A stretch of DNA of 64,000 nucleotides. Source: Verrucomicrobiota bacterium (GTDB lineage Bacteria; Verrucomicrobiota; Verrucomicrobiia; Limisphaerales; CAIQOK01). The stretch lies in NCBI GenBank assembly GCA_046346715.1, contig JAXMHO010000007.1:35517-99516 (forward strand), written 5' to 3'. The notes under the pieces were generated by a model. It made no database searches. It was given only the letters and a program-made list of their open reading frames with translations, and had not been told where the DNA came from. Both the position numbers and the translations under genes were made by a program. This document shows, piece by piece, positions 13,375 to 60,079 of the stretch; within the stretch, counting starts at the first letter, position 1, and each line of letters opens with the position of its first letter.

Positions 13375-14742
13375 TCAGCGCGATCCCCGCCGCACGATTT
13401 CAAAATAATTCTCCGGCCCAACCTGGCCGCCCTTGAATACCACCTCACAGCCGTCCACCGGCGAGTTCGTTGCCCGCGCCCGGCACAACGGCGCGCCCGG
13501 CGTGAGCGGGGCAATCATCTCCAGCGCCTCTATTCCCATGGCCCGCGCGGCGTAACTGGACGTGTCCCCCCCGGCGATGCTGACGCGGCGGACGGAAGTT
13601 TGTTTCACCGCCTCGTGCAAAACTTTCCCCAGCGCCGAACCGAGAACTTCCGCGGTGCGCCCTTTCAATTTGGCAGCAATGCGCGGATTTGATCCCGACC
13701 TGGTGGAATGCACGATGACGCTGCGGTCAGCGAGCAACAGCTTGGCGGCTGCCTGAGCAGCGCGGGATATTTCTTGAAGGGATGTCTTGGCATCGGCCAG
13801 CAACAAAGCATTCAAGGCCACTTCCGCAAATCCATGCTTCAAAGCCCAGGTAATCTGCCCATTCGTCACTGGCGAGCAACTACCTGAGCCGATCAGAACT
13901 TGTGTAGCAGCGGACGTGAGTCCGCTGATCTTACCTCTGCTGGTTTCAGTTTGAGCCGACCCACGTCGGCTGTTGCCCGCGCTAAAAGCCGCCGCCAACG
14001 CAGCCTCAATTCCCGACGATCCCACCGAGAACAAAGGACTTTTCTTCGCCGCAGAGTCTTTCAGCAGTTCACCAATCCGCGCAATGTGCTCCGCCGTCAG
14101 CGCATCAAATAGCACCACGTCAGGCTTCTCGGCGAGTAATTGCCGGAATGCCACATGGAATTCTTTTTCCGGCAGCGAGAATTTCAGGATGTCGAACAGG
14201 GCGCTCCTTTTCTGGGTCTGCTTCGAGAGATGCAGCCGCAAGTCCGCCTCGGTCATCGGCGTGACCGGGTGTTTGCTGATGGAGGGATGGCGGTCAAGCC
14301 GGTGGATAGCGCCGGCGCTGCCGATACCGTAGCGCGCGAAGTGTTGGCCGAAGATCGTGTAGCGTCCGAGCGAAGGCGCGGCGACCAGCAACGGAATGAA
14401 CGGCGCAGGAAAAATTTTCGCCGCCACATCCATAACCTTGCCGATACTGCCGACGTGCGGCGCAGAATCGAACGTGGAACAAACTTTGTAGTGAACGTGC
14501 CGCGGCTTCAACTTCTTCAGCGCGAGCATGGCGGGCTTCAGTTCCTGTTCCATCGCCGCGGGAGCGAGCGACCGGGTCTTGCCCGCAACGCCCACGGCCT
14601 GCAGCCCGGGAAACTTCTTCAGTTGCGCTGGCGTGGGCGGCGCGATGAACAGCGCCGTGCGGATGCCCGCCAGCGACAGTTGCTCCAGCGCATCCGTCGA
14701 ACCGGTGAAGTCGTCGCCGTAAAATGTGAGGAGGAGGTTCAT
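13375..14742 (-). CDS. Four-carbon acid-sugar kinase family protein (DUF1537), copy 2
   Basis: It has MNLLLTFYGDDFTGSTDALEQL (the DDxTG motif) and a C-terminal SIAGGDTSSYAARAMG motif. ORF-track ORF 13375..14937 was trimmed to ATG 14742 because the upstream extension reads through a repeat element. Confidence 0.8.
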   Translation of the reverse strand: MNLLLTFYGDDFTGSTDALEQLSLAGIRTALFIAPPTPAQLKKFPGLQAVGVAGKTRSLAPAAMEQELKPAMLALKKLKPRHVHYKVCSTFDSAPHVGSIGKVMDVAAKIFPAPFIPLLVAAPSLGRYTIFGQHFARYGIGSAGAIHRLDRHPSISKHPVTPMTEADLRLHLSKQTQKRSALFDILKFSLPEKEFHVAFRQLLAEKPDVVLFDALTAEHIARIGELLKDSAAKKSPLFSVGSSGIEAALAAAFSAGNSRRGSAQTETSRGKISGLTSAATQVLIGSGSCSPVTNGQITWALKHGFAEVALNALLLADAKTSLQEISRAAQAAAKLLLADRSVIVHSTRSGSNPRIAAKLKGRTAEVLGSALGKVLHEAVKQTSVRRVSIAGGDTSSYAARAMGIEALEMIAPLTPGAPLCRARATNSPVDGCEVVFKGGQVGPENYFEIVRRGSR

Positions 14743-14755
14743 GCAGCGAAAATTA

Positions 14756-14879
14756 AACCACAGAGACGCAGAGACACGGAGAGAGGAATGAAAAGACGTT
14801 GGCACAAAGATAGCCAGTGGATTGCAGCGAACGGCAAACTCTGATCGGCATGCCTCTGTGTCTCTGCGTCTCTGTGGTT
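14756..14879. repeat. Inverted-repeat element (22-bp perfect arms, 80-nt spacer) of the aaccRcagagaMcgcagag repeat family, 'empty' copy
   Basis: aaccacagagacgcagagacac at 14756-14777 is the exact reverse complement of 14858-14879. The element is flanked by ttaa(a) on both outer sides. Confidence 0.85.
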
Positions 14880-15295
14880 CATTTAAATACGCCTCCAAGC
14901 ACGACGCGTTCAATTCCATCTTTGAGCAAAGGCACATTAAAATTTATCAGCAGACCTAGTAGGTTTTGGTTTAGTTTGAGGTAGGTCAACAGCTGAGCCT
15001 TGTGCACCGGCAGGATTTCTTGAACGGCCTTAAGTTCAACGATCAGTTCGTTGGCGATGATGAAATCTAGGCGATAACCGCAGTCCAGCTTCACGCCCTT
15101 GTAATCGAGCGGAAGATCAACCTGCTTTTGAAATGGAATTCCAGCCCGAGAAAGTTCATGAGCCAACGCCGCCTCATAAGCTGATTCCAATAATCCCGGT
15201 CCAAGCACACGATGCACCTCGATACAAAGACCAATGACACGCTTACTTAACTCATTCAGCGTCTTTCTTTGTGCCTCTGCGTCTCTGTGGTTCAT
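14879..15295 (-). CDS. GxxExxY protein (PD-(D/E)XK nuclease-like small protein)
   Basis: IEVHRVLGPGLLESAYEAALAHEL contains the GxxExxY motif, and LDFIIANELIVELKAV has a nuclease-like core. The region is visibly more AT-rich than its neighbours. The N-terminus MNHRDAEAQRK is encoded by the repeat. Confidence 0.8.
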   Translation of the reverse strand: MNHRDAEAQRKTLNELSKRVIGLCIEVHRVLGPGLLESAYEAALAHELSRAGIPFQKQVDLPLDYKGVKLDCGYRLDFIIANELIVELKAVQEILPVHKAQLLTYLKLNQNLLGLLINFNVPLLKDGIERVVLGGVFK

Positions 15296-15298
15296 TTA
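15273..15298. repeat. Additional copy of the repeat family (direct repeat of 14860-14885)
   Basis: ctctgcgtctctgtggttcattta occurs at both 15275-15298 and 14862-14885. It contains the overlapping stop (TGA) of the upstream gene and the ATG of the downstream reading frame. Confidence 0.8.
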
Positions 15299-16554
15299 GC
15301 TTTCCCGAACTTCTCCACAGACTTTTTCAACTCCGGATATTTCGCTGCGGCCTGTTCGAGCGTGAGTCCTTCGACCGCCGCTTCCCACCACTTTTGCAGC
15401 GAGCGCACACCGGCTGCCGGGCCATCGGGATGCGCCGCAATGCCGCCGCCCGCCATGTAGAGCAGATCAACCGTCTGGGTGCGGCGATACGTTTCGCACG
15501 CCTGTCCGCCCCATTGACCGGAGGAAACAACAGGCAAGACGGACATACCACCGAGCAACGGCTTCGCACAGGCAGCCATTGACCGCACGACCGAATCATC
15601 GCTCTCCCAAAATTTGTTCGCGATTCCGTTGACGTGGAGTTGGTCCGCGCCCGCCAACCGCCAGAGGACTTGATACGCGGGAAATTCAATGCCGAGCTGC
15701 GGATGACGATTCAACATCCCCCAGCCGTTGCGATGGCCGTGAATGGCAAGTGCACCGATGTCGCAAATCTTTTTCGCACCGCTCAAGCCGACGCTGTTGA
15801 GCGAAATCATCGCGCACGTGCCGCCGGACTTCACGATCTTCTCGTAATGCCGTTGCATCGCGTCGAGTTCGTCACTGACATTGAAGGCATACATTACCTT
15901 TTTGCCGGTGCGATCGGCGTGAGCATTGATGACGCGCATGATGGCATCGACGCGTTCATCGAACGGCGAGTGCGGCGGGTCCGCCATCAACTCGTCGTCT
16001 TTCACGAAATCAATTCCCGCCTCACAGAGAACTTTCACCATTTCCGCCGTCTGCTGCGGCGACATGCCGATACTCGGCTTGATGATCGTGCCGATGAACG
16101 GACGGCCTTCGACCTTGGTCAGCTTCCGGCAACCCGCGACGCCGAACTTCGGTCCGCGAAAATGCTGGGCGAACGACGGTGGCAGTTCGAGGTTCATCAG
16201 CTTGAGGCCGGTGAACGCGGTGATTTCGTAGAGATTGCCTTGGATGGTGGAAACGAGCGTGGGCAGGTTATAACCCATGTTCTCGATCGACCACGAGACG
16301 ACGACTTCTGCGCGTTGAAATTTTCCCGAGGCCGATCTCGCACCCGGCAAGCTCGGCGTAGCGACGGTTTCCAGCAGCGTGATCTTCTCCACGCGCGCAG
16401 CAAAGCGTTGCTTGAGTTCTTCGGTTTCTCCCGGGACAGCCACAAAGGTTCCGGAAGATTGTTCACCCGCCAGCGTGGCGGCGGCTTTCTCCACCGCGAG
16501 CGGCGTCTCGATATGATACGTGGCGAAAATGCGTTCCATGACTGATAAATTCAT
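15292..16554 (-). CDS. RuBisCO-like protein (form IV RLP)
   Basis: GTIIKPSIGMS, DFVKDDELMADPPHSPF (the KDDE metal/carbamate site) and IHGHRNGWG correspond to RuBisCO large-subunit active-site segments. ATG 16554 was chosen; alternatives are TTG 16581 and ATG 16539. Confidence 0.85.
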   Translation of the reverse strand: MNLSVMERIFATYHIETPLAVEKAAATLAGEQSSGTFVAVPGETEELKQRFAARVEKITLLETVATPSLPGARSASGKFQRAEVVVSWSIENMGYNLPTLVSTIQGNLYEITAFTGLKLMNLELPPSFAQHFRGPKFGVAGCRKLTKVEGRPFIGTIIKPSIGMSPQQTAEMVKVLCEAGIDFVKDDELMADPPHSPFDERVDAIMRVINAHADRTGKKVMYAFNVSDELDAMQRHYEKIVKSGGTCAMISLNSVGLSGAKKICDIGALAIHGHRNGWGMLNRHPQLGIEFPAYQVLWRLAGADQLHVNGIANKFWESDDSVVRSMAACAKPLLGGMSVLPVVSSGQWGGQACETYRRTQTVDLLYMAGGGIAAHPDGPAAGVRSLQKWWEAAVEGLTLEQAAAKYPELKKSVEKFGKAK

Positions 16555-16722
16555 TGTGGGGATTTCTTTTAGCGAATCCAAGCCCCTTGATTCATGGAAT
16601 TATCGCCGAAAGTGTTTTGAAAAGCGCCACCGCCTTCATTGGACTTTCCTGTCGCGCTTGCCGTGCTATTGTCACCCTCATCACCGCGGGCCAACGATGG
16701 TCGCGCCGTGGCCGAATCAATT

Positions 16723-17817
16723 ATGCGCTTAACCATCGCCCTGTTTGCCTTGACCGTCATCCTCGCCGGATGCGCCACCGCCCCCCATCACTCCCACACT
16801 CCGCCATCGGCCCTGGTGAAATCGGAATTCATTTACGAGACCGCGCCATTTCCCTCGTGTCACGCGTCCACGCTGGCCGAAACAAAATCCGGGCTGGTCG
16901 CGGCCTGGTTTGGCGGCACGGCCGAACGCAATCCCGACGTCTGCATTTATGTTTCGCTGTTGGTGAACGGCGCGTGGACCTCGCCGGTGTCGGTGGCGGA
17001 CGGCGTGGGATTTACCACCAACCGGCAGCCCACCTGGAATCCGGTGTTGTTCCAGCCGCGCCAGGGACCGTTGATGCTTTTCTACAAGGTGGGTCCGTCG
17101 CCCAAGGATTGGTGGGGCATGATGATTCAGTCCGAGGATGACGGCAAAACCTGGTCGGCGCCCGTTCGTTTGCCGGATGGCATTCTTGGTCCGATCAAAA
17201 ACAAGCCGGTGCAGCTCGCCAACGGCGACATTCTTTCCCCCACCAGCGTCGAGGGTTCGGGCGGATGGCAGGTGCACTTCGAGCGCAGCAGTGATTTGGG
17301 AAAGACCTGGACAGCCACGCCGCCGGTGAACGACGGCAAAGTGATCGGCGCAATCCAGCCCAGCCTGTTGCTCCACGGACAAAACCGTCTGCAGGCCGTG
17401 GGCCGGACGAAGAACGACAAGGTCTTTGAAGTCTGGTCCGAGGACGCCGGCAAGACCTGGGGACCGATGACGCTGCTGGATTTGCCCAACCCGAATTCCG
17501 GCACGGACGCCGTGACGCTTCGCGATGGCCGGCAGCTGCTGGTTTACAATCACAACACCCGTGACGGTGCCGGTCACAAGGGCCGCAATCCCGTCAACGT
17601 CGCCCTGTCAGAGGACGGCAAACACTGGCAGGCCGCGCTGGTGTTGGAAGATGATCCGTCCGCGCCCAACGGGTTTGCCTACCCCGCCGTCATTCAAACC
17701 GCCGACGGCCTCGTCCACATCACCTACACGTGGGAACGCAAAAAAATCAGGCACGTCGTGATTAATCCCGCGAAGCTCGACTTGAAGCCGATCGTCAATG
17801 GTGTCTGGCCAAAGTAA
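16723..17817 (+). CDS. Sialidase-like BNR/Asp-box beta-propeller glycosidase (lipoprotein)
   Basis: A lipoprotein signal is present (MRLTIALFALTVILAGC). There are four Asp-boxes: SEDDGKTW, SSDLGKTW, SEDAGKTW and SEDGKHW. Confidence 0.75.
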   Translation: MRLTIALFALTVILAGCATAPHHSHTPPSALVKSEFIYETAPFPSCHASTLAETKSGLVAAWFGGTAERNPDVCIYVSLLVNGAWTSPVSVADGVGFTTNRQPTWNPVLFQPRQGPLMLFYKVGPSPKDWWGMMIQSEDDGKTWSAPVRLPDGILGPIKNKPVQLANGDILSPTSVEGSGGWQVHFERSSDLGKTWTATPPVNDGKVIGAIQPSLLLHGQNRLQAVGRTKNDKVFEVWSEDAGKTWGPMTLLDLPNPNSGTDAVTLRDGRQLLVYNHNTRDGAGHKGRNPVNVALSEDGKHWQAALVLEDDPSAPNGFAYPAVIQTADGLVHITYTWERKKIRHVVINPAKLDLKPIVNGVWPK

Positions 17818-17833
17818 GGCCGGGAACCACAAC

Positions 17834-18607
17834 TCAAAACGCCTCGGCTGCGCCGCCGTCCACCGGCATCACCACGCCGCTGACGTATTTGGCCGCCGGC
17901 GACGCGAGATAAACCGCCGCCCAGCCGATGTCGTCGGGTTCACCGAACCCGCCCATCGGAATGCGCGCCATGATCTTCGCCTTGCGCGCCGGATCGCCAC
18001 TGAGAGCTTTGTCGAGCATGTCGGAGGCAATCCAGCCCGGAGCAATCGCGTTCACCCGCACACCCTGCGCGCCCCACTCGGTCGAGAGCGTGCGCACGAT
18101 GCCGACATAGGCGGACTTCGCGGCGGAATACGCCACGACGAGCGGCATGCCCATGAAGGAAACCATCGACGCCGTGAACAGGATGCAGCCGGAGCGGCGC
18201 GCCACCATGCGTTTGCCCGCCTCGCGTGTGAGGGCAAACGCGCCGAACACATGGGTCTCGATGACTTTGGCAAACTCCGCGTCGGAAGTTTCCGTCGCGG
18301 GCTTTTTCAAATGCACCCCGGCGTTGTTGACCAGAATGGAAATGGGACCGGCCAGCTTCTCCGCCTCTTCCAGCAATCCAGGGACAGAATCCAGCTTCGT
18401 CACGTCGCCCGCCAGCGCGAATGCCTGCGGGCCGAGCGCGACGCAGGCCTTGGTCAATTCCTCGCGACGACGTCCCACGAGAACAACCTTTGCGCCCGAG
18501 GCCACAAAACACTTGGCCATGCCAAAGCCCAGACCGGTGCCGCCGCCGGTGATCAGGGCGGTCTGCCCGGTGAGATTAAACGGTGAAGCAGTTCCAGAAG
18601 TTTTCAT
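17834..18607 (-). CDS. SDR family oxidoreductase (KduD/gluconate-5-dehydrogenase-like)
   Basis: It has TGGGTGLG (TGxxxGxG) and YSAAKSA (YxxxK). ATG 18607 overlaps the upstream stop (ATGA). Confidence 0.8.
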
Positions 18608-19818
18608 GCGCGGCAACCGGCGGTGAGTGAAGGTGTGTTTTGATGTTTATACATGACGAAGTATTCGCGATGGCCGAGCGCCTCCGGCTTGCTGGGTTCG
18701 CCGGCGGCGACTTTCAACAGCAGTTCGGCCAGTTCCAGCCCAGCCTGAGGCAGGCTCAGCCCGCCGGTTAAAACTCGGCCGGCATCGAAATCCATGTCGT
18801 CGGCCAGGGCCCGGAAGGTCGAGCTGTTGCCGGTGACTTTCACCAGCGGCGCAACGGGACTGCCAATCACGCTGCCGCGGCCGGTGACGAACAGCACGAT
18901 CTGCGCGCCGGCGCTGATCAAATCCATGATGCCTTCGGTGTCGTTGGGATTGGTGTAGCCAAACTGCATGAAATGCTCGTCGGGCACGCTGTCGAGAATC
19001 CACAGCCCCGGCCCGCGCGGCGACTCGGAGACGCGGATGACGCCTTGAATTGGCCGCGTGCCGGACTTGGCAAAAGCCCCGAGACTCTTTTCCTCAATGG
19101 TGGTGAGGCCGCCCGCGAAATTTCCCGGCGACACGGACCATTGCCCCACCGAACGGCAATACCGTTCCGCCTTGTCGTAGGCATCGGCGAGTTGTTTGCG
19201 GGCTTCGTCATTGGCCGCGCGCGCCAGCATGTGCCCGCGCAATCCCATCATCTCGACGGTCTCCTCAAAAATGGCGCGCCCTCCGGCGTCCACCAGCAAA
19301 TCAAAAAACGCGCCGACGGTTGGATTGCCCGCCAACCCCGACGTCCCGTCCGAACCGCCGCATTCGCAGCCGACGGTCAGGTCGGCCAACGTCATCGGCG
19401 CCCGTGGAGTTTCGCGGCGGATGTGTTCACGGAGACCGGCGACAACTTCCTTTCCCTTGGCGACGGAAGATTTCGTTCCGCCGGTCTGCTGGATGAAAAA
19501 CCATTCTGCGGGACGCCCCGACTTCCGGACCGCCTCGGCGATTTTTTCCGGCTGGGTGTATTCACAGCCGAGTCCGACCGACAGCACCGCGCCCACGTTC
19601 GGATGCCGCGCCAGCGCCAGCATCAGACGGATGGCATAGGCATTGTCATAGCAGCCGGGAAAGCCGATGACATGGACATCCTCCTCGCCGGCCGCAATCG
19701 CGTGGGCGACGTGCTGCGCGCATTCGACGGTATAAACTACGAGCACCAAGTTGCGGATACCCTTGCGACCATCAGGACGCAGGTAGCCGGACCAGGAAGT
19801 TTTCAGCAGGTCAGACAT
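18604..19818 (-). CDS. UxaA-family sugar-acid dehydratase, large (C-terminal) subunit
   Basis: [38 protein letters not shown] resembles the altronate/galactarate dehydratase (UxaA/GarD) C-domain. The start was trimmed to ATG 19818. Confidence 0.8.
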
Positions 19819-20143
19819 AGGCGGAAGTCGTGTCGGTTGGCGCGCCCGAGTGAAGATCCAAGGTGCCGGAGCGGACGTCCAAATCGCTGGCCATGTTGTG
19901 GAGATGAACCCAGGCGCCACGCGGGATGGCCTGGGTCGCATGACCGATGCGCACCCCGTATTTGATCACTGCTTCACCCTTGGCAATGTCGCGGATGGCG
20001 AGCTTGTGGCCGTGGGTGATTTTTTCCGAGGCGAAAACCTCACCGCTGGCGGCTCCGAAAATCTCGACCACCCCCGCCGGCGCGTCGTCAATCAACGTGG
20101 CGACGTTGTCTTGGGGTTGGATTTGGAAGGCGCGGGGTTTCAT
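19811..20143 (-). CDS. UxaA-family dehydratase, small N-terminal SAF-domain subunit
   Basis: [20 protein letters not shown]...[22 protein letters not shown] is typical of the SAF/UxaA N-domain. There is an 8-nt overlap with the large subunit gene. Confidence 0.75.
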
Positions 20144-20154
20144 CGGGGGATTAT

Positions 20155-20188
20155 TTAACCGCAAAGAGCGCAGAGAACGCAGAGAAAA
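20155..20188. repeat. Repeat-family arm (left arm of cargo-bearing element)
   Basis: The sequence is ttaaccgcaaagagcgcagagaacgcagagaaaa. It lies 12 nt upstream of the UxaA-small-subunit ATG. Confidence 0.75.
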
Positions 20189-20228
20189 TTCCCTTTTCAG
20201 GGCTTGCGCTAATCTTCGCTGCAAATAT

Positions 20229-20690
20229 TTAGGTTTCACCACAACAAATGGTCTTAATTTTGTTTTTTAAAAATTCCCAGGACGTGTCTGTCTGGGCAGC
20301 TAATTCAATTGGGTATCTCTCCGCGAGCTGAGGCATTGCATTAATACGACGTTCGCATTCTGCCACATCAGAAGTGTAAACCCACCACTGCCTCGTGCCG
20401 TTTTCGGTTAGAACTGCTGTAAGCACTGCAAGGAAATCATGTTCAAAGGCATCTACAAAATGGTTTTCAAAATCCTTTAGTTGACTCAATTCTTCTTCAT
20501 CGGGAATACCAGAACTGCCGTCATGCACGTATCCCCACGTGATGATCAGCAAACGGGAATAACCCGCGTAATCTGTCACGTCGCAAAATCCTTCCCTGAA
20601 TCGAAACATAAATGGTGCATTACCGTGCTTGCCTGTAATTCTAGTCCAACGATCTTGCTTCACTGCGGCGATTACTTGCTGTGACTTCAT
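20229..20690 (-). CDS. DUF695-like small protein (cargo of repeat-flanked element)
   Basis: LLIITWGY...GIPDEEELSQLKDFENHFVDAFEH...TENGTRQWWVYTSD matches my recollection of the DUF695/RraB-like pattern. The stretch is conspicuously AT-richer than its surroundings. Confidence 0.5.
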   Translation of the reverse strand: MKSQQVIAAVKQDRWTRITGKHGNAPFMFRFREGFCDVTDYAGYSRLLIITWGYVHDGSSGIPDEEELSQLKDFENHFVDAFEHDFLAVLTAVLTENGTRQWWVYTSDVAECERRINAMPQLAERYPIELAAQTDTSWEFLKNKIKTICCGET

Positions 20691-20697
20691 GGGAGAG

Positions 20698-20733
20698 TTT
20701 TCGCTTTGCGCTCTTTGCGTTCTCTGCGGTTAA
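20698..20733. repeat. Repeat-family arm (right arm, inverted relative to 20155-20188)
   Basis: Its reverse complement reads ttaaccgcagagaacgcaaagagcgcaaagcgaaaa. The TAA stop of the enolase-superfamily gene (20730-20732) lies inside the ttaa terminus. Confidence 0.75.
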
Positions 20734-21848
20734 ACCTTCGTCACCTTGTGTTCCACACACGTGCGATCAATCGCATCCCAATTCAGTTCTACGCCGATGC
20801 CGGGCTTTTGCGGAACGTGCGCCATGCCGAATTTGTCGATGGGATATTTGTCCTTCATCGGAAAACGGAACGGCTCTTCGGGAATCAGCAGCTCAAAGTA
20901 TTCGCAATTCTTGATGGCGCAGCTCACGTGCAGATTGGCGATATCCATGAAGCCCATCGTCGTGCAATGCACTTCGCAGCGCAGCCCGTGCGCCTCGGCG
21001 AGATGCGCGATCTTCAGCGTCCCGGTGACGCCGGCCTTCCACGAAACATCCGCGCGCACGATGTCCACGGCGTTGAATTGAATCGCCTGCGCCACGCCCC
21101 ACGGACCGCCACGCGTCGTCTCCGTGCCGGCAATGGGAATGTCCAACGCGGCGCAGAGCTTGGCGTATTTCGCGAGTTCGAAATCGCGGAACGGTTCTTC
21201 GAACCAATGGTAATTCAGTTTCTCCAGATCGCGCCCGACGCGAATCGCTTCTTCGAGCGAATAATCAGCCACCGGATCGGTCATCAAAACGTAATCGTCT
21301 CCAGCTGCCTCGCGCAACGCGCGGTGAATCTCGATATCTTTCCGCCACGGGCCAGGCGGATGCGCTTTGTAAGCCGGAAAACCGCGCTTCTTGTAAGCGC
21401 GCAATTGCTTCACATAATCCTCGACCTTTGGCATGAACAAACTGCTCGCATACGTCGGAAGACTCGTGCGACACGTGCCGATGAATTGATACAGCGGCAA
21501 CCCCGCGTCCTGCGCGGCGATGTCCCACAGCGCGACGTCCACCGGGCCGGGAAGATAGACCGGAAAGAACGTCAGATGCCGGTCAATCGTCCAAAGCTCG
21601 TGCCAGATCGCCTCGCGTTCCACCGGCGAACGGCCCATGACCACCGGCGCAATGTTCTCGTGCAGGTAAGCCTGCGTCACGATGCTGGAACGCGCCGCGA
21701 GCGCCGTGGCGTGGCCGGTGAGACCGGTGTCCGTGGTCAACTTCAACACGACCACGTCCCAATTCATCGGGCTGCGGCCCGTGCGCGAGGAATCGAACAA
21801 CGACTCTTGCCGCTGACAACGCCAGGTTTCAAACGAGGTGATTTTCAT
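20730..21848 (-). CDS. Enolase-superfamily (mandelate racemase/muconate lactonizing enzyme family) acid-sugar dehydratase
   Basis: The 372-aa protein begins MKITSFETW...VVLKLTTDTGLTGHA, a capping-domain start. Its length and pattern are typical of MR-subgroup dehydratases. Confidence 0.75.
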   Translation of the reverse strand: MKITSFETWRCQRQESLFDSSRTGRSPMNWDVVVLKLTTDTGLTGHATALAARSSIVTQAYLHENIAPVVMGRSPVEREAIWHELWTIDRHLTFFPVYLPGPVDVALWDIAAQDAGLPLYQFIGTCRTSLPTYASSLFMPKVEDYVKQLRAYKKRGFPAYKAHPPGPWRKDIEIHRALREAAGDDYVLMTDPVADYSLEEAIRVGRDLEKLNYHWFEEPFRDFELAKYAKLCAALDIPIAGTETTRGGPWGVAQAIQFNAVDIVRADVSWKAGVTGTLKIAHLAEAHGLRCEVHCTTMGFMDIANLHVSCAIKNCEYFELLIPEEPFRFPMKDKYPIDKFGMAHVPQKPGIGVELNWDAIDRTCVEHKVTKV

Positions 21849-21857
21849 GCTATTGAT

Positions 21858-21986
21858 TTAACTGCAAAGAACGCAAAGAGCGCAAAGAATACAATAAATA
21901 CGAACGGCTGCCTGACATCATTGCAACGCGTTGGAATCCATTTTCTTTTCCCCTTCTTTGTGTTCTCTGCGATCCCTGCGGTTAAC
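21858..21986. repeat. Inverted-repeat element of the same family, 'empty' copy (about 33-nt imperfect arms, about 63-nt spacer)
   Basis: The arms are ttaactgcaaagaacgcaaagagcgcaaagaat (21858-21890) and the reverse complement of 21954-21986, gttaaccgcagggatcgcagagaacacaaagaa. The element fills the gap between the RraA-like stop and the enolase-family start. Confidence 0.75.
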
Positions 21987-22651
21987 TAAAGAATCCCATA
22001 CTTCTTAAACGCCGCGGTGCTGCTCATGCCCGCCTCGATTTCCTTGCGGACGAGCTTTTCGCCGCGGGCCTTGGCCAGGGCGCGCTCCACCACTTCGGAC
22101 TCAACCTTCTTCGGCACGATCACAACGCCGTCCAGATCACCAAACACCAGATCACCGGGCTGGACCGTGACGGGGCCAATTTCGATCTGACAACGGAAAT
22201 CCACGACTTGGGTGCGCACGGAGGAGTCCTGGGCAAAGCGTCCGCGTGAAAAGACCGGCCAGTTTTGCTCCAGCATCTTCGGCGTGTCGCGGTGAAAGCC
22301 GTTTATGACCGCGCCGGCCGCGCCACGTTTCTTGGCGGTGGCGGTGAGGATTTCGCCCCAATAAGCGCAGCGCATTTCCCCGCCGCTGGCCAGATAGATT
22401 TCGCCGGGCTCAAGCTGGTCGAGCGCTTCGGTGAGCAGGCCGAACGGCTTCTTCTGCTTGCCGAAGACGTCGATCATCACCACCGGCATCGCGCGGCCGG
22501 TGAGTTTCATGTCGTCGCGCGCGGGCTGGATGGGCTGGGGTAGAAATTGATGCGTGAAGCCGAGGTCGTCGAGGATGTCGCCGACGACCGGCGTGTAAAG
22601 TTCACGGGTGCACAGTGAGAACAATTCGGAGTCAGATTTCCATTCGGACAT
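21986..22651 (-). CDS. RraA-family protein (4-hydroxy-4-methyl-2-oxoglutarate aldolase-like)
   Basis: MSEWKSD...[14 protein letters not shown]...LTGRAMPV...[14 protein letters not shown] is the typical RraA/HMG-aldolase fold signature. Confidence 0.7.
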
Positions 22652-42712: not shown

Positions 42713-43763
42713 CTATTCGTGGCCCAGCATGAGTCTGCGCACCCGCTTGCTTTCGGGCCGTTGCTCCGCCATGCCGATGGCGTTGAGCGGGCCTTTGCGT
42801 TGTTTGCTATTTCCATCAACGACGGCATACCAGCTCGTCTCCACAGTCTTTTTCGGGTCTGCGCCGGCTTTGAGCAAGCGCCGGGCGATCTCATCCTCGT
42901 CTTGGGCGGCGGCATGCATCAACGGCGTCCAACGCGCAACCTGCCACCACGCTGTGCGTTTACATCTGCACCAGCCTTGATGAGCAAATCGAGAATCGCC
43001 AATCGTTCCTTAGGCTTCATTTCTCGTTCTATCGCTGCCATCTCCGCCGGGTTTTTGACGACAGCCACGAACAGCGGCGTGTCGCCCTTCGCATTGGAAA
43101 GCGCCCTAACTGGCAGTCAAACCCAAATTCACATCCCGGGCTTGGCGGCGAGCCCAGTAATTCGACAATCTCCAGGTCGCGCTGAAACACCGGATGATGC
43201 AATCCGTCCATCCGCAGACAACCCGCCTTCAACAGCAGGCGAATCAAGTCCCGGTCAATCTTTGTCGCTTGAATATCGCTAAGCTTAACGCCGTTCGGCC
43301 TCGACGCGTCTTGGCTTTCACATCTGCGCCGTGCTTCAGGAGTTTGGTCATCATTTCGTGATTGCCATCTTCGGCAGCGACCGACAGACGGGAATCTCGC
43401 CGGGATCGCCTTCGTCACTGACTGAGGATTTTTGTTCACGTCCGCGCCGGCTTCGATCAGCAAGTCCACGATTTCACCGTGCCCCGCTTCGCAGGCACTC
43501 ATCAACGGCGAATCCTCGCCCGGGAGTTTTTTGTTCACGTCCGCACCGCTCTTGATCAACTGCTTTACGAGCGAAACCAAACCGTGCTCGGCCGCGGCCG
43601 ACAACAGCAAGAAGCCACCCTTTTGCAGATTCAGAGTCAGTGGTTGATTCGCGTCCCACTCGCCATCGGCAACGCACTTCTCGACCGCCGCCCAATCCTC
43701 GGCGTTGACCAGTTTCCACATGGCTTCGTTGGTTTTCATGTTGTCGCTGGTTGTGTGAGCCAA
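42713..43763 (-). pseudogene. Ankyrin-repeat protein, multiply frameshifted
   Basis: Ankyrin-like segments are spread over three frames. They include GFLLLSAAAEHGLVSLVKQLIKSGADVN, SPLMSACEAGHGEIVDLLIEAGADVN and SVAAEDGNHEMMTKLLKHGADVKAKTRRGRTALSLA. Further segments are DRDLIRLLLKAG, GDTPLFVAVVKNPAEMAAIEREMKPKERLAILDLLIKAGADVNAQ and TPLMHAAAQDEDEIARRLLKAGADP. At least four shifts are required. Confidence 0.7.
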
Positions 43764-43771
43764 CCATCACA

Positions 43772-44137
43772 TCATTCGTGCTGACCCAATCTCGTGTATC
43801 GGGCCTTGCCTCCCTCAGCCCAAACAAGCTGCATGTGATCGCCGCGCAACTCGCACTTCGCCGCATGTGGTCCGGGTCTGGGCGTCGTGCCATCAAATCG
43901 CAGTGTCAGTCTGGCCGGCGGTTCAAACGAATAAGTTCCCATCGTTATCTCCGTGCCGGTGGTCACCTTCACCATTCCGTCCGCCTGAAACGTCAGCAAC
44001 GTGGCTGTGCCCTCCTCCGACCATGTGCCAAAGATGCCGCGCTGGGACTGGCTTGTGGCGCATCCTGCTATGATGAGCAGCAAGATCAGCGTGACCTGCA
44101 CGCTCACCAGCTTCCAAATAGTTTTATACGTTGTCAT
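43772..44137 (-). CDS. Small lipoprotein of unknown function
   Basis: It has a signal peptide with a lipobox (VTLILLLIIAGCATSQ). The 121-aa protein belongs to no recognised family. Confidence 0.55.
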   Translation of the reverse strand: MTTYKTIWKLVSVQVTLILLLIIAGCATSQSQRGIFGTWSEEGTATLLTFQADGMVKVTTGTEITMGTYSFEPPARLTLRFDGTTPRPGPHAAKCELRGDHMQLVWAEGGKARYTRLGQHE

Positions 44138-44150
44138 CAGCGTGAGAATT

Positions 44151-45038
44151 TTATGATTTCTTTTTACCGCCGGATTTTGCGCCGAGCTGCTTGAAAAACT
44201 TCGTCACGGACTCTTCGTAAGCCGCCGCGCCATAATCGGCGGCGGAACTGCCCTCGGCATCCTTGGCTTTCACGTCCACGCCAAGCTTCACGAGCCGTTC
44301 CAGCAATCGCACGGCGATTGCCGCCTCGTCCTCGTCCGACGCATCGCGTGCGAACAATGCCGCCCAGATGAATACCGTCCGGTCATCGGCGCTGGCGGCG
44401 TGCGGATCAGCTTTCGCCTCCAGCAAAGTTTCCATGACAGTTATCTGTCCGCAGCTCACAGCGTCCATGAGTGCGGTTTTGCCCTGCGCATCGCGCAAAC
44501 CCACCGGCACGCCTCGCGCCAGCAGCAACTCGACGATCTCCGTGCGCCCCTTGGCCGCCGCCGCATGCAACGGAGACAACTTCGCACCCGCCTGCAAATG
44601 CGATTTCGCACCCGCCGCCAGAAACGAATTCACCAGCGGCTTCGACCCGATACGAACCGCTTCGACCAGTGGCGTCGTGCCGTTGTTGGACGCCGCGTCG
44701 GGATTCGCGCCGGCCTCGAGCAGCAATTTCACCACGTCCAGATGCGGCTTCTCCGCCTTGCCCGCGAGCAACGCGAAGTGCAGCGCCGTCTGGTCACCCG
44801 CGCCGCCGGACTCACTCGTGGTCCGTGCCGCCACGTCTGCGCCCGCTTTGAGCAGCAGCCTCACGCAATCGGCACTGGCTGCGTTGGCCGCGAGCATCAA
44901 CGGCGTCACGTCGCGGATGTAGCCGTTGACCGTGCGGGCGTTGCCCTCCGCGCCGGCTTTCAGAGCGGCGGTGACTTTTGCGGCGTCGCCGCTTTCACAC
45001 GCTTTGAACAGGGCTGATGAACTGGCTTTCGTTTTCAT
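44151..45038 (-). CDS. Ankyrin-repeat protein (intact)
   Basis: The protein begins MKTKASSSALFKACESGDAAKVTAALKAGAEGN. Repeats follow, such as TPLMLAANAASADCVRLLLKAGADV, TPLVEAVRIGSKPLV, SPLHAAAAKGRTEIVELLLARGV and KTALMDAVSCGQITVMETLLEAKADP. ORF-track ORF 44151..45452 was trimmed to ATG 45038. Confidence 0.75.
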   Translation of the reverse strand: MKTKASSSALFKACESGDAAKVTAALKAGAEGNARTVNGYIRDVTPLMLAANAASADCVRLLLKAGADVAARTTSESGGAGDQTALHFALLAGKAEKPHLDVVKLLLEAGANPDAASNNGTTPLVEAVRIGSKPLVNSFLAAGAKSHLQAGAKLSPLHAAAAKGRTEIVELLLARGVPVGLRDAQGKTALMDAVSCGQITVMETLLEAKADPHAASADDRTVFIWAALFARDASDEDEAAIAVRLLERLVKLGVDVKAKDAEGSSAADYGAAAYEESVTKFFKQLGAKSGGKKKS

Positions 45039-45057
45039 TCTTGTGGTTGCGCGCGGT

Positions 45058-45864
45058 TTACCGGACAAACACCTTCCAGTTGGAAAGCACGATCGAACAC
45101 ACCGCCGGAACGCGGCTGATGAGTTTGAGTTCGATCTGACTGTAGCCTTTCGGGAATTGCAGTCCGACTTCGTAAGTGCCGGCCCAGGTCGTGTCCTCGC
45201 CGTTCTTTTTGGTGCGCGCCACCCACTTGTCGCTTTTGCCGTCGAGCACCACGTCCTCGACCAACTTCGCCCGTTGCCAGTCGGAAACCGTGTCGAAATC
45301 CGAAACGCCCAGCGGCTTCTTCGGATTGCCCAGGCGCACATAAACATCGGAGTCGACGCAGCCGTAGCTGTTGATATGCGTAACGCGGACGACCGTGCGG
45401 CTCTTGGAACTGGGCGGCTTCGGAATCGTCGTCGCGCGCAGGACGGATTCACCGGTCAGGTGGAAACTGGCTTCCGCATTCTTTTGTTCGACCTGTTTCC
45501 GCTGTTCGGTGGCGGCGTTCGTTGCGGCCGGCTTAGACGATTTGCCAAGCGGCGATTCAGTGAGGAACTCCACACCATCCCGGCGGTTGTATTTGGTCAC
45601 CCGTTCGTCCAGGAAATTGAAAAGCGTGTAGGTCTTGCTTCGACGGGTGAGCCGGTAGCGGCGAGTCTTGCTCGGGCCTTTGAATAATTTTGACGCAAGG
45701 CTCACCACGCAGGAAAATTCATTTTCCAACTCGGCGGTGTAAGAGCCTGTATCGTAACCCATCTGATACTTGCCGTCCTTGAGCGTGAAAGGCAGCGCCG
45801 GGCTGCCGACTTGATAGTAAGCTCCTTCCAAGCCATCAATCTTCTGATTTTTTTTGGTGCTCAT
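45058..45864 (-). CDS. Hypothetical protein
   Basis: The ORF is long and has non-low-complexity composition (MSTKKNQKIDGLEGAYYQVGSPALPF...). No family was recognised. The start is ATG 45864, with 45885 as an alternative. Confidence 0.5.
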   Translation of the reverse strand: MSTKKNQKIDGLEGAYYQVGSPALPFTLKDGKYQMGYDTGSYTAELENEFSCVVSLASKLFKGPSKTRRYRLTRRSKTYTLFNFLDERVTKYNRRDGVEFLTESPLGKSSKPAATNAATEQRKQVEQKNAEASFHLTGESVLRATTIPKPPSSKSRTVVRVTHINSYGCVDSDVYVRLGNPKKPLGVSDFDTVSDWQRAKLVEDVVLDGKSDKWVARTKKNGEDTTWAGTYEVGLQFPKGYSQIELKLISRVPAVCSIVLSNWKVFVR

Positions 45865-45877
45865 CGTGTCCAGCCTT

Positions 45878-46570
45878 TCAGTCATAGGACCGTTGCAAAA
45901 TCTCCAGAACGTCTCCTTTAATCGACTCAGGTTTCCCATCGTGCGAGTCCAAATAGAACAACGTTGAAGCTGGAGGCTCTATGCGATGCAACACAAACTG
46001 ATCGCCCTCGCGCTCTGCAAGGACAAGGAAATCGCCATCCGCGAAAGCCGTGCGATATGCTGTCTTAGCGTCGTGAATCGTCCAGTCACCGAAATCCTGT
46101 TTTTGATGCTTCGTCAAAAACTCACGCCACGAATCAGGTATCGGTGGCGGTTCATTTGTGGAATCAACCACCATTGGGTCTGCCAACAATCGGGCGGACG
46201 GCGCGGCATCCCATTCGGCGAAAGCGATGGCTTTTGGATTCGGTGTGATCGTGAAATCGAAAATATGGCCGCCAATACTCGTAAGCGTCGCCTTGTAGGT
46301 TCGCTTGGTGACGCTAAACCGGACTTCCGCCAGTTGGAACTCGCCAGTGCGAGGGAATGTCGGAACGTCACTCCAATCCACCTTTCCAGACCGCCTCCGA
46401 TAAAAACAAATCTCGTTGGGATGCCGCTGGACGAGCGTGATGCTTGCGACTTGCGAATCAAAGATGGATTGAGCCGGCGGTGGCAACACCTCTCGCACAA
46501 CGGCCACAAGCCGCTCTTCCAACGGCGAAAAACGCCGCCAAAGCAAGCTGAGTCGTTGTGTGATGGTCAT
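45878..46570 (-). CDS. Hypothetical protein, C-terminal half weakly SUKH/SMI1-KNR4-like
   Basis: The protein is 230 aa. The C-terminal part, IPDSWREFLTKHQKQDFGDWTIHDAKTAYRT...GDFLVLAEREGDQFVLHRI, is reminiscent of SUKH immunity-type domains. This is a weak, by-eye resemblance. Confidence 0.4.
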   Translation of the reverse strand: MTITQRLSLLWRRFSPLEERLVAVVREVLPPPAQSIFDSQVASITLVQRHPNEICFYRRRSGKVDWSDVPTFPRTGEFQLAEVRFSVTKRTYKATLTSIGGHIFDFTITPNPKAIAFAEWDAAPSARLLADPMVVDSTNEPPPIPDSWREFLTKHQKQDFGDWTIHDAKTAYRTAFADGDFLVLAEREGDQFVLHRIEPPASTLFYLDSHDGKPESIKGDVLEILQRSYD

Positions 46571-46606
46571 GACCTTTTGAGACTTATTCAGTTCGTGATT
46601 CGGATT

Positions 46607-48024
46607 TCAGCCGTGATGTTGAACTTCCCACCCGAAATAATTCCCAAACGCTTCAGCCAGGATTTCCGCCGAGTGCGATTGCGTCATGACGACGTGATGT
46701 TCAAAGCCTTTTTCGCAGACGTGACGCAGGACTTTTTGCAGGTTCGGCACTTTGGCCACGGCGCGGTTGCCGAAGGTCTTGAGTTCGTCGTTCGTGAGTT
46801 CGCCTTCGCCGACGTAGCAGCGGATTTTGCCCTCGGCATCGGCGGTGGTGATGCGGCCGTAGGTCAGCGGGCCGGCGGGCGTGCGACCGTCGAGCGCGCC
46901 ATAGGTGTTTTCCACGCCGAGAATGCTGCCAAGGATCGGCGCGTTGGCGATCTTGATGTCGGGCAGGAAGGATTTTGCCCAGTTGCCGCAATGGAAGAGG
47001 ACGCATTTGTCGTCGTCGTCCGCGTAGTTGTTGTTCCAGTCCACGAGCGCGGCGGGCGTGCCGCCGGCGAGTTGCATGGCATACATGGTGAGCACGCCGG
47101 TGACGTCCACTTCGCAGGCGCTGGGCATGAACTTCTCGCTCATCATGCTCATGAGCGTGCAGACGTTGCAGCCGAAGTTCGCCTGCACGGACGTCCAGCA
47201 TTGGATGGCGGTGGCGTCGAGGTGATTGGCGTTCATCCAATCGGTGAGCACCACGCCCATCTTGGCCATCTGCACGAGCTTGTCGTTCGGCACGCCGGGC
47301 GCGGGGGCGTAGCCGGTGATTTCTTTGAGCTTGGATACGACGGATGGGGCGGAGGCGTCCAATTTGTTCGCTGCGCCGATGATTTCTGACAAATCCACGG
47401 TCGTGACGCTGATGCCGTGGCGTTCGAGGATTTTTCGGAGTAACGCACTGTGTTGAATGCGCCGGGCCGCGCGCCGACCGCGCCGAGGCGGACGCCGCGC
47501 AGGCCATTCACCACGCGGCAGACGCCGAGGAACTTTTGCAGGTCGCGCTTGAAGCTGTCGGACGCTGGATGCGAAACGTGTTTGCTGGTGAGCGTGAACT
47601 TGATGCCGGCCTGCACGAGGTTGTTGCAGACGGAAATCTTGCCGCAGAAGGAATCGCGTCGGCGCGACGGCATGAGTTGCTTCGGATCGTCGGGATAACC
47701 TTGGATGAGCACGGGAACATTCAGTCCCGCGAGCTTCAGCGTGTCAGCCACGCCTTTTTCGTCGCCAAAGTTCGGCAGGCAGACGAGCACGCCGTCAATT
47801 TCATCCGCGTGCTTCTTGAACAGCTCGGCGCACTTGCGGGCGTCGTTGTGCGTCTCCACGCCGCCGAGCTTGGAATCGGATTCGCCGAGCTGGATGGCTT
47901 TGATGCCGTATTCGGCAAACAGTTTGGCGATGTCCGCCCGCGCTTCGGTGACGAGGGCATCGGGGAAGAAATCGCGGTTGCCGTAGATCACACCAAGGAC
48001 GGGCGGTTGGAGATTGGTTTTCAT
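46607..48024 (-). pseudogene. L-fucose/L-arabinose isomerase-family sugar isomerase interrupted by a single frameshift
   Basis: The N-terminal 190 aa or so come from ORF 47233..48024 (...GAVGARPGAFNTVRYSEK). The rest comes from ORF 46607..47398 (...DLSEIIGAANKL...). Adding one base to the T5 run at 47431-47435 would restore SEKILERHGISVTTVDLSEII. Confidence 0.75.
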
Positions 48025-57557: not shown

Positions 57558-59101
57558 GGCAGCTTTCCGGAAAGTTTCGACAGGCTGGTGGCCCGGGCGA
57601 TTTCCTTGCCGTCGGCAAAGATCATTAGACCTTGGCCTCGGCGATAACGCGTTCCATCCGTGTCCCACAAAATGGTGAGCTCGCGTCCGTGATATTTCAC
57701 GCCATCGAGGCAGAACCAATCCCACGTTTCGTCGGGCAGCAGCGGATTCACCTCGACGACATCCGCAGCCTGCGGCCGCAAGCCGACGATGCCGGTGATG
57801 AGCAGGTCGGCAAAGGTCGAGTGGTTGTAGTAACGGCTGCGGTTATTTTTGCCGTTGATCCAGTCGCCCGTGACCTCGTCGAGATATTCCCCGATGTAGG
57901 GTTTGCCGCCGGCGTGCTGGCTGTGGACGTAGGTGAGAAAAGCATCCAGGTAATCCGACCGGCTCAAGCCGACGGGCGGATAATCCTGGAGCACATTGCC
58001 GAGCGCATACAAAGTCTGGCAGGTGGCGAACGGCCAGACTGCGCCGTCCCATTCACAGGTGCCGACGCCGTGGGAGCGAAACTGCGGATGGCGGCGCTCC
58101 GCGGTGGTGACGCCAAACGGCGCGGCAAAACCTTCCGCATCGAGTAGCTGAGCCCACGCCGCGCCAGAATCGAGACGCGCTGACGGCAAACCAAACATCC
58201 ACGGAACAAACCCGACAGCTTCGCGCGCCGTGGAAAAGACACCGTCAGGCCGTCGGACTTTGAAAAACTTTGCCTGGGCATCCCACAAGGTTTCCTGCGT
58301 GAGTTGTTGCAGGGTGTCCGCCTTCCGCTGAAAATCAGCCGCAACCTCCGGACGCTTTGCCGCAAGGGCCAGCGCCGCAATCGCGCGGGCATTGGCGAAC
58401 ATGTAGCTGTTGATGGTAGGGCGAAGGTTTCGGTTGGTGCGCGAACCCGAGATGGATTCCTCCATGCCGTCGCGGACGTCAAACTGCCAGTAGAGCCCGT
58501 TGGTGGCCTGACGCTCCCGTTCCCAGAAATGGTATTCGGCAATAAAGTCGTCGAGGAGATCCACGGCAGGTTTGTTGTCGCCGGTCACCAAACAACGGTC
58601 ATAGGCAGCGGCGGGAATCCAGCTACTGAAACCGTGCAGCTTCTTCTGCGGCCCGCCCTGATTGCCGCGAAACCAGAAGCGCAGATAGTCATCAACATAA
58701 CTTTGATCGCGCAGCCAGCGGCCTTCGGCAACATGGAAGCCCGTGGCGCAACTGATGGCATTGAAGACATCGGCATGCCCCACCGGCGTGAGAAACTCGG
58801 TGATGATCCAGCCCGCCGGCGTGCGGACGAGATGCTTGCGGAAGGACCACCAACGGTAGAAATACATCTCCTCAACCTCGGCGTCCGGACACTCGAACCG
58901 GGGGATTTCCGTTTGCATCCACGCCACCGCCTGTGCGTTGGACAGGGTGTTCGTGTAATGCTCGTCTTCCATCGCGTTGAAACGCGTGACATGACGAACC
59001 AGTGCGTCGGACGTCAGCACCGGCGGCGGCGCGGCCGAGCCATCCACGGCCAAACCCACCAGCATCAACAGCATCCCAGTATGCCGTCGGAGGCTGGTCA
59101 T
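57554..59101 (-). CDS. Secreted (alpha/alpha)6 six-hairpin glycosidase-like protein (GH63/MGH1-like)
   Basis: A signal peptide is present. YFYRWWSFRKHL...GLYWQFDVRDGMEES...CEWDGAVWPFATCQT is reminiscent of six-hairpin glycoside hydrolases. The family is not certain. Confidence 0.45.
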   Translation of the reverse strand: MTSLRRHTGMLLMLVGLAVDGSAAPPPVLTSDALVRHVTRFNAMEDEHYTNTLSNAQAVAWMQTEIPRFECPDAEVEEMYFYRWWSFRKHLVRTPAGWIITEFLTPVGHADVFNAISCATGFHVAEGRWLRDQSYVDDYLRFWFRGNQGGPQKKLHGFSSWIPAAAYDRCLVTGDNKPAVDLLDDFIAEYHFWERERQATNGLYWQFDVRDGMEESISGSRTNRNLRPTINSYMFANARAIAALALAAKRPEVAADFQRKADTLQQLTQETLWDAQAKFFKVRRPDGVFSTAREAVGFVPWMFGLPSARLDSGAAWAQLLDAEGFAAPFGVTTAERRHPQFRSHGVGTCEWDGAVWPFATCQTLYALGNVLQDYPPVGLSRSDYLDAFLTYVHSQHAGGKPYIGEYLDEVTGDWINGKNNRSRYYNHSTFADLLITGIVGLRPQAADVVEVNPLLPDETWDWFCLDGVKYHGRELTILWDTDGTRYRRGQGLMIFADGKEIARATSLSKLSGKLP

Positions 59102-60024: not shown

Positions 60025-60079
60025 GAATCTGTCAGTGCCGGGATTCTTGGCCAGCCGGCCGGAGCCGGCAAGGACGTTG

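Follow-up and report, generated by a model that had tools for sequence, protein, structure and literature searches.

A 64,000-nt stretch of a Verrucomicrobiota bacterium genome (contig JAXMHO010000007.1, positions 35,517 to 99,516; hereafter the window, whose own positions are used throughout) contains a catabolic operon in which three gene junctions are occupied by elements built from the arms of one repeat. Read along the minus strand, on which all of the genes lie, the order is an RraA-like gene, hairpin C, an enolase-family dehydratase gene, element B, the small and large UxaA subunit genes, an SDR gene and, further along, a RuBisCO-like gene, locus A and a sugar-acid kinase gene. A preliminary description, made from the sequence alone, had placed seven arms at these junctions (kinase/RuBisCO-like, UxaA-small/enolase and enolase/RraA-like, each between same-strand genes) and had read them as an insertion system able to carry a small gene. 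Direct reading of the sequence together with repeat searches found all seven arms where they had been placed, and a degenerate arm pattern gave eight matches in the window compared to 0.06 expected from shuffled sequences. No further arm was detected outside 14.7-22 kb by the degenerate pattern, by looser fuzzy searches or by a window-wide inverted-repeat scan.

The arms are 22-36 nt long and consist of tandem purine-rich units, with a unit length of 8 nt at locus A and 9 nt at loci B and C, and inverted partners are 83-100% complementary. The units come after (T)TTAACC at B and C or after ATGAACC at A. The TTAAC termini that had been proposed for the whole family therefore apply to B and C, while locus A ends in ATGAACC / GGTTTAA. 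The purine-rich arm was read to be free of T and its partner free of A, and a stop codon is therefore impossible within the arms, whichever frame or strand is read. Stop codons are abundant in the outer ends (TTAACC, GGTTAAATAA or GGTTAAATGA); the TAA at 20730-20732 and the TAG at 21986-21988 are indeed the stop codons of the genes upstream of B and C, respectively.

The three loci differ in architecture. Hairpin C is empty and spans 129 nt, element B has the order arm, DUF695 open reading frame (ORF), inverted arm, and locus A is a composite with the order arm, GxxExxY gene, arm, spacer, inverted arm. Within locus A, the 22-nt inverted repeat at 14756-14777 and 14858-14879 is perfect and has the 80-nt spacer that had been reported. 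What had been listed as a single additional arm at 15273-15298 is instead the 5′ arm of a GxxExxY cassette, whose gene (14879-15295) had been overlooked. ATGA overlaps chain the four ORFs of locus A, namely the RuBisCO-like gene, the GxxExxY gene, a 47-amino-acid (aa) ORF and the kinase gene. Both short hairpins fold far better than shuffled sequences (z = -8.0 and -4.1), and their long stems, which are near-perfect tandem-repeat duplexes, are stable in both transcript orientations. As had been remarked of the enclosed regions, cargo and spacers are AT-richer than their surroundings, with 44-51% GC compared to 58-61% in the flanking genes, and with a third-position GC of 0.42-0.48 compared to 0.65-0.84.

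Table 1. Window positions of arms, carried ORFs and flanking genes
Feature	Position	Strand	Detail
Locus A, empty hairpin, 3′ arm (minus/sense direction)	14751..14785		8-nt units CACAGAGA/CGCAGAGA
Locus A, empty hairpin, 5′ arm	14854..14885		starts ATGAACC; ATGA = GxxExxY stop + 47-aa ORF start
47-aa ORF across the entire empty hairpin	14739..14882	-	ATGA overlaps with GxxExxY gene (upstream) and kinase gene (downstream)
Cargo 1, GxxExxY / PDDEXK_3 gene, 138 aa	14879..15295	-	N-terminus MNHRDAEAQR arm-encoded; PF13366, TIGR04256
GxxExxY cassette, 5′ arm	15263..15298		ATGA = RuBisCO-like stop + GxxExxY start
Element B, 3′ arm (sense direction)	20151..20188		9-nt units, outer end GGTTAAAT
Cargo 2, DUF695 ORF, 153 aa	20229..20690	-	third-position GC 0.42
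Element B, 5′ arm	20698..20734		TTAACC gives TAA stop of enolase-family gene
Hairpin C, 3′ arm (sense direction)	21857..21890		empty hairpin
Hairpin C, 5′ arm	21954..21989		abuts TAG stop of RraA-like gene
Four-carbon acid sugar kinase family gene	13375..14742	-	downstream of locus A
RuBisCO-like protein gene, OiaX-like	15292..16581	-	upstream of locus A
UxaA-type dehydratase small subunit	19811..20143	-	downstream of element B
Enolase-superfamily dehydratase	20730..21848	-	between elements C and B
RraA-like aldolase gene	21986..22651	-	upstream of element C

Elsewhere in the window, two adjoining ankyrin-repeat proteins are encoded at 43029-45452, and the stretches 45986-47389 and 58304-60123 contain several ORFs that match nothing in Pfam and whose third-position GC is low.

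Filled and empty junctions in orthologous operons

When metagenomes were scanned with the enolase protein, 80 loci sharing this gene order were recovered at 67-97% amino-acid identity, and junction lengths across these orthologous operons were bimodal. At the RraA/enolase junction about 31 of 59 loci were tight (31 nt or less) and the filled ones measured 43-1700 nt; at the enolase/UxaA-small junction 46 of 60 were tight and 14 filled (87-502 nt); and at the UxaA-large/SDR junction 20 of 29 were tight and nine filled. Tight junctions typically consist of an ATGA stop/start overlap. The filled junctions often contained the same arm family, which occupies a patchy minority of the orthologous operons. 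In a tree of the enolase, filled and empty states were interleaved, with empty sisters beside filled loci. These results confirm insertion polymorphism at orthologous junctions. Since filled and empty states are mixed there, the earlier reading of the elements as insertions holds, and the tests that were run gave no contrary outcome, such as confinement of the repeat to the window or one shared sequence at every orthologous junction.

The forms found at filled junctions connect the empty and the cargo-bearing versions, which had been distinguished in the window, through deletion intermediates. Five loci contain short arm hairpins (L121, L167, L170, L172, L180), in four the arms enclose a complete GxxExxY gene that belongs to a second subfamily (L166, L170, L174, L183), and three contain a hairpin followed by a GxxExxY gene and a further arm (L145, L149, L180). 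Elements of 230-241 nt in L157, L166 and L176 have an internally deleted GxxExxY gene between two intact arms. Solo arms occupy positions where relatives have entire hairpins, and the RraA/enolase junction alone hosts at least four to five distinct element variants. In the closest relative (L121, 97% identity), the enolase/UxaA-small junction holds a 138-nt hairpin with the same arms as element B that retains the first bases of its DUF695 ORF; L122 holds a different ORF at this junction and the next relative is empty there. At an orthologous locus (L208) the hairpin corresponding to that of locus A is 81 nt shorter, and a 20-aa ORF, its frame preserved despite the deletion, still bridges the GxxExxY stop codon and the ATGA overlap at the kinase start.

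The L122 insertion (L122:2182-2679), situated at the junction occupied by DUF695 in the window, comprises an arm hairpin followed by a 146-aa ORF (147 codons including the stop). The signal-peptide or lipobox-like N-terminus of this ORF (IFCLFCGCG) is encoded by a decayed pyrimidine-rich arm.

Hairpin families unrelated to the arms were found at other junctions of the same operons, and these operon junctions are thus general landing sites.

At the UxaA-small/UxaA-large junction many relatives carry two or three unrelated hairpin repeat families (L141, L147, L149, L158, L160, L162, L164, L166, L169, L170, L172, L173, L142), with repeats such as GTAGCAGCCGAGGTAACGAGGCTC... and GTAGGGCGCGTCACTCCGTGCGCGCC...GGCGCGCAGGGGACTGCGCGCCCT, and several of these hairpins form in-frame fusions with the N-terminus of the gene that follows. 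Many relatives (L123, L126, L128, L131, L134, L137, L138, L146, L121) also contain an extra enolase-superfamily paralogue (approximately 27% identical) between the RraA-like and enolase genes; the window has no such paralogue, and hairpin C lies there instead.

Genes carried between the arms

The cargo of locus A matched PF13366 (E = 1.7e-41) and TIGR04256 (148.6 bits, cut-off 35). The PD-(D/E)XK residues E37, D77, E87 and K89 are invariant in the GxxExxY alignment, and the structural model is confident (predicted local distance difference test score, pLDDT, of 91). Its nearest folds (Cas4, lambda exonuclease, splicing endonucleases, a homing endonuclease domain and Hjc) are all weak matches and generic for the PD-(D/E)XK class. 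No solved structure was found by sequence, and neither PHROGs nor PADLOC returned a family match. A survey of PD-(D/E)XK proteins lists the function of the GxxExxY family as unknown and reports multiple horizontal transfers (PMC3424549).

In more than 100 GxxExxY homologues the arms encode the N- and C-termini of the protein. Nearly all of the best 120 homologues begin with MNHxDTEAQR, which is the translated 5′ arm, while homologues of 166 aa end in LLLCASVSLWFK, the translated 3′ arm. A full hidden Markov model search yielded 31,711 GxxExxY representatives at 50% identity; arm-type termini, in several arm dialects, recur among the best 150 of these and across 143 representatives clustered at 50% identity. 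The typical cassette gene encodes about 125-140 aa. The top-scoring representatives (P0142-P0155) are longer, at 240-295 aa, and contain two domains in tandem, possibly the result of neighbouring cassettes having been joined via a stop-free arm.

In annotated isolates the GxxExxY gene is wedged between co-oriented neighbours, and arms of the same kind were present in three of five cases. In Sphingomonas (fabD/gxx/fabG) the ORF runs through the 3′ arm and stops 2 nt short of the fabG start codon, and Bernardetia (ade/gxx) and Bacteroides (radA/gxx) have arms of the same kind; the Treponema copy has a short 12-nt inverted pair only, and the surroundings of the Prevotella copy showed no arms. The same combination of arm and GxxExxY gene was found in a metagenome-assembled genome of Chloroflexota. 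Across nine independent contexts the gene was always co-oriented with the gene upstream. Homologues were absent from 50,697 deposited phage genomes and were found on only seven of 72,556 plasmids. GxxExxY is the sole recurrent enzyme gene between arms at the loci examined, and the cassette that carries it, missed in the preliminary description, is likely the "autonomous" form of the element. A classical transposase partner is not supported: there is no transposase inside the elements, nor was one detected in the window or in the loci examined.

That no transposase was found is also what one would expect if recombination alone, with no dedicated machinery, had dispersed the elements, the arms acting as portable homology and slippage-prone repeats. 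Cassettes would then pass from strain to strain, and among hairpins already in place, by ordinary recombination, whether homologous or illegitimate, once transformation or a phage had brought the DNA in. Directly repeated arms flanking a gene are the product expected of a single crossover within an arm, one junction can hold different cargoes in close relatives (DUF695 in the window, its remnant in L121, a lipoprotein-like ORF in L122), and the arm-dense phage genomes described below could be carriers. Recombination of this kind nevertheless leaves unexplained how a first hairpin arrived at a zero-length ATGA junction, why the catalytic residues are retained across the 31,711 GxxExxY representatives, and why arm and GxxExxY gene are associated across phyla. 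We regard this explanation as improbable.

The 153-aa cargo of element B, which had been called DUF695-like, is a DUF695 protein by its match to PF05117 (77.6 bits, cut-off 23.1; E = 1.4e-21). A homologue with 74% identity occupies the same enolase/UxaA-small junction in another contig. Two distant homologues lie in integron-like settings. One (L209:3843-4600) comes after a 470-aa tyrosine recombinase and has GTTAGGC before it and GCCTAAC...GTTAAAT after it, followed by an IS110 transposase, while the other (L211:3860-4620) is flanked on both sides by palindromes of about 110 nt with GCCTAAC/GTTAGGC ends. On account of these settings, DUF695 looks like a passenger drawn from a general cassette gene pool.

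The same homologues raise the question of whether the elements themselves are integron-type cassettes, with hairpins acting as attC-like sites for an integron integrase that recognises folded single strands, captured at secondary sites in operons. The attC core consensus is RYYYAAC / GTTRRRY, and the outer ends of the B/C type, (A/G)TTTAAC...GTTAAAT (for instance ATTTAAC / GTTAAAT), fit it. The cargo genes resemble integron cassettes in being small, promoterless and co-oriented, the empty hairpins (55-287 nt) overlap attC sites in size, and the composite arm architectures look like those that a one-site circle would leave on integrating. The A-type ends (ATGAACC), however, fall outside the consensus, and the stems are near-perfect duplexes that lack the bulged bases and the spacer by which attC folding is defined. 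The commonest form has one arm on either side of the ORF, whereas an integron cassette carries a complete site downstream. The elements occur singly, inside housekeeping and catabolic operons, and the window contains no array, attI or integrase, the search for tyrosine recombinases having been limited. An integron origin is accordingly judged unlikely.

Arms in other phyla and in phages

The repeat is not restricted to the loci of the window. An exact-pattern scan of one genome per species (596 Gb) identified at least 120 arm loci in about 18 phylum-level groups. Approximately 70 chance matches are estimated for a 35-bit pattern in a data set of this size, and the raw count alone is therefore not significant. 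However, half of the genome loci continue with a third periodic unit past the pattern, 57% are T-free over 28 nt and 39% are preceded by TT, and the matches were judged to be real because of this continued periodicity, the T-free arms and the preceding TT. For about one third of the arms an inverted partner lies no more than 300 nt away, and the resulting elements measure 55-287 nt; many arms are solo.

The same pattern matched 79 loci in viral contigs. Some of these contigs, which encode portal, capsid and baseplate proteins, have 11-15 exact matches per 25-43 kb, the densest reaching 15 copies in 25 kb. Phage locus L260 contains three 95-nt hairpins that are near-identical, share a conserved inner stem-loop and are each placed exactly at a junction of co-directional genes. 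An ATGA stands before each hairpin and an ORF runs across it, the frame being different in all three. The preliminary description had held that the arms always form inverted pairs at operon junctions. While this is correct within the window, solo arms and other intergenic positions were found elsewhere, and strict placement at operon junctions is a trait of this lineage and of phage modules and no universal rule. For 126 arms taken from other phyla, the ORFs immediately downstream proved to be host genes or spurious only.

Arm-dense phage or prophage contigs with arms at the junctions of structural genes include L245, L262 and L270 (IMGVR_UViG_3300022745_000135). Others of this kind are L234, L237 and L265 (UViG_3300024287_000138) and L260, L259, L251 and L225 (UViG_3300020005_000015). 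In the genome scan, some cyanobacterial and acidobacterial loci (L035, L066, L109, L111, L119, L120) have arms that face each other by their outer AACC ends at a distance of 9-18 nt (GGTT-N-AACC), a topology opposite to that of the window hairpins, as if two elements abut. Sister arm dialects (AACCGCCAAGACGCCAAGAACGCCAAGA, CACCACGAAGCACACGAAGAGCACGAAGG, GAACGCAGATGGACGCAGAT, CACAAAGGCGCAAAAGGACGCAAAGG) occur beside the CGCAGAGAA type or nested with it (L057, L069, L046, L050, L034), which suggests a superfamily of tandem-repeat arms.

A cassette model and its relation to known systems

The elements are foreign, insertion-polymorphic and multi-copy, are bounded by inverted repeats, have a gene-bearing form and a decay series, and are co-oriented with and embedded in host operons. 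Taken together, these results lead us to favour, as the probable though by no means certain explanation, a widespread and apparently selfish family of foldback-type DNA cassettes that are expressed by read-through. In this model a full unit consists of two inverted arms of about 25-35 nt, made of tandem 8- or 9-nt units and having (T)TTAACC...GGTTAAA(T) or ATGAACC as their outer ends, around a small, promoterless, co-oriented gene. Units would become fixed at or near the ATGA stop/start overlap of co-transcribed genes, be transcribed by read-through from the host operon, and lose their interior by deletion, so that first empty hairpins and later solo arms are left. The GxxExxY nuclease may act as the mobility factor, for example by cutting a cruciform or the empty site, with copying or recombination through arm homology, and such homology might also permit the exchange of cargo. 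Two composite architectures were observed ("arm gene arm inverted-arm" and "arm inverted-arm gene inverted-arm"), and these are as would be expected if a circle bearing one arm integrated into one arm of a resident hairpin.

At the level of expression, translation of upstream, cargo or short bridging ORFs would pass through the stem and stop immediately ahead of the following start codon. With stop-free arms and stop-rich outer ends, ORFs could therefore read through the stem while the host genes stay translationally coupled, and the composition of the arms may be an adaptation to translated junctions. In the mRNA the stems are probably cut by RNase III, by analogy with rRNA intervening sequences.

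These same properties could be taken to mean that the hairpins serve the host, as RNA elements that process, stabilise or uncouple segments of a polycistronic mRNA, with incidental ORFs. The stems are long, and stable whichever strand is transcribed; a position between cistrons would suit differential mRNA decay; the bridging ORFs and ATGA chains suggest that the elements have become part of host expression; and RNase III cuts stems of a comparable kind in rRNA intervening sequences (PMC4990558). Against a host function, most orthologous operons function without hairpins, occupancy is patchy and accompanied by a decay series, the composition is AT-rich and foreign, and one and the same arm recurs across unrelated operons, phyla and phages. 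Neither a terminator or promoter consensus nor an Rfam family was detected at the elements, the only Rfam hit being a sub-threshold match to a microRNA. In addition, a comparison of sense and antisense stability and of G-U counts revealed no sense-strand bias, and selection at the RNA level is for that reason not evident. A host-serving role is considered unlikely.

Several results weigh against the cassette model as well. The absence of sense-strand bias is one of them, and spanning ORFs, found in only nine of 18 arm-type hairpins, were no commoner there than in unrelated hairpins. No clean target-site duplication was found at filled orthologous sites, and a TTAA or TA duplication is unsupported. 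ATGA is present on both sides in nine of 11 filled RraA/enolase sites, a count confounded by selection for a stop and a start codon; it is also present on both sides at the UxaA-large/SDR junction but not at the enolase/UxaA-small junction. Filled alleles are 6 nt shorter at the enolase start. There are no homing-type co-conversion tracts around the filled sites, whose flanks follow the species tree, and because long tracts are lacking classical homing is unsupported. Among classifiable hairpins from other genomes, 23 of 34 lie between co-directional genes, which is close to the genomic background, although such junction-type statistics are rough, the simple gene caller being unreliable in GC-rich DNA. 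A GxxExxY gene lies within 8 kb in only three of the 120 arm-bearing genome loci. Near-identical arms in about 18 phylum-level groups are unusual for a miniature inverted-repeat transposable element (MITE). Finally, the nuclease activity of GxxExxY is a prediction, as is any action on the arms.

The closest described counterpart of the elements is the ORF-bearing intervening sequence (IVS) of 23S rRNA. In Coxiella, Leptospira and Salmonella these IVSs have terminal inverted repeats that form a stem of about 28 bp with an optional small ORF in the loop; a long-standing suspicion is that they are what remains of a mobile element, and their stems are cut by RNase III (PMC4990558). The 5′ part of the Coxiella IVS contains purine-rich tandem heptamers (GACAGAT), in three to four copies that vary among strains, ahead of the ORF start (PMC4990558). 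The window elements likewise have terminal complementary arms that form a stem around an optional, small and decaying ORF within a transcribed unit. While IVSs reside in fixed 23S rRNA helices (9, 25 or 45), the window elements lie between protein-coding genes, in a region without an rRNA match, and carry GxxExxY or DUF695 in place of the four-helix-bundle protein S23p. RNase III excision is proven for IVSs and would apply to the window elements by analogy, and translation through the arms is without a counterpart in rRNA IVSs.

Other systems share part of this architecture. The Correia (NEMIS) elements of Neisseria are short, inverted-repeat-bounded hairpin elements with many copies, often co-transcribed, whose stems are RNase III targets; to our knowledge they are confined to one genus, make a TA duplication and contain neither a gene nor a transposase of their own. 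Like these and like MITEs, the arm-bounded elements are delimited by inverted repeats, multi-copy and insertion-polymorphic, with no transposase inside. Unlike Correia elements, they have arms of tandem subrepeats, extend over about 18 phylum-level groups, include a gene-bearing form and have no established duplication, and unlike MITEs they have no autonomous relative, an insertion sequence sharing their ends and encoding a transposase, in the window or the loci examined. REPIN elements are inverted-repeat doublets that form hairpins, with a single-copy enzyme gene, RAYT, as the suspected mover. Whereas REP units are palindromic with a GTAG head, the arms are purine-rich tandem repeats that are not self-complementary; GxxExxY is not a Y1 transposase, and no RAYT (Y1 transposase) gene was seen in a partial test.

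The Drosophila Foldback (FB) elements have long terminal inverted repeats of short tandem subrepeats, with variable arms and with or without an internal coding segment. The window elements share with them the tandem-subrepeat arms, the variable arm length and the coexistence of copies with and without a coding segment; Foldback elements differ in being eukaryotic, much larger and unrelated in sequence, and in having different, poorly defined transposition proteins. The free-standing homing endonuclease genes of T4-like phages are similar in that a small nuclease gene lies between conserved co-directional genes with a patchy presence, but the window elements lack co-conversion tracts and GxxExxY belongs to neither the GIY-YIG nor the HNH type.

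A search of the open literature by family names and arm strings, with subscription literature outside its scope, found no description of the arms or cassettes. The cassette family is seemingly undescribed, and there is a real chance that it represents a distinct class. More tentatively, and with doubt outweighing confidence, the elements may belong to a pan-bacterial, phage-borne class of "translationally transparent" cassettes at operon stop/start junctions that are mobilised by GxxExxY, with the ORF-bearing 23S rRNA IVSs being members that landed in rRNA genes.

If the model is true, it would provide a function and a genomic "lifestyle" for GxxExxY, a large family of unknown function, and would account for thousands of "hypothetical proteins" of odd, low-complexity sequence, as well as for extended gene termini, in the annotation of Verrucomicrobiota, Bacteroidota, Cyanobacteria and other groups. 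It would also supply a candidate origin for ORF-bearing rRNA intervening sequences. Moreover, it would describe a route by which foreign DNA may enter a 4-nt gene overlap without breaking either transcription or translational coupling, with relevance to the evolution of operons and as a design principle for insulated gene insertion.

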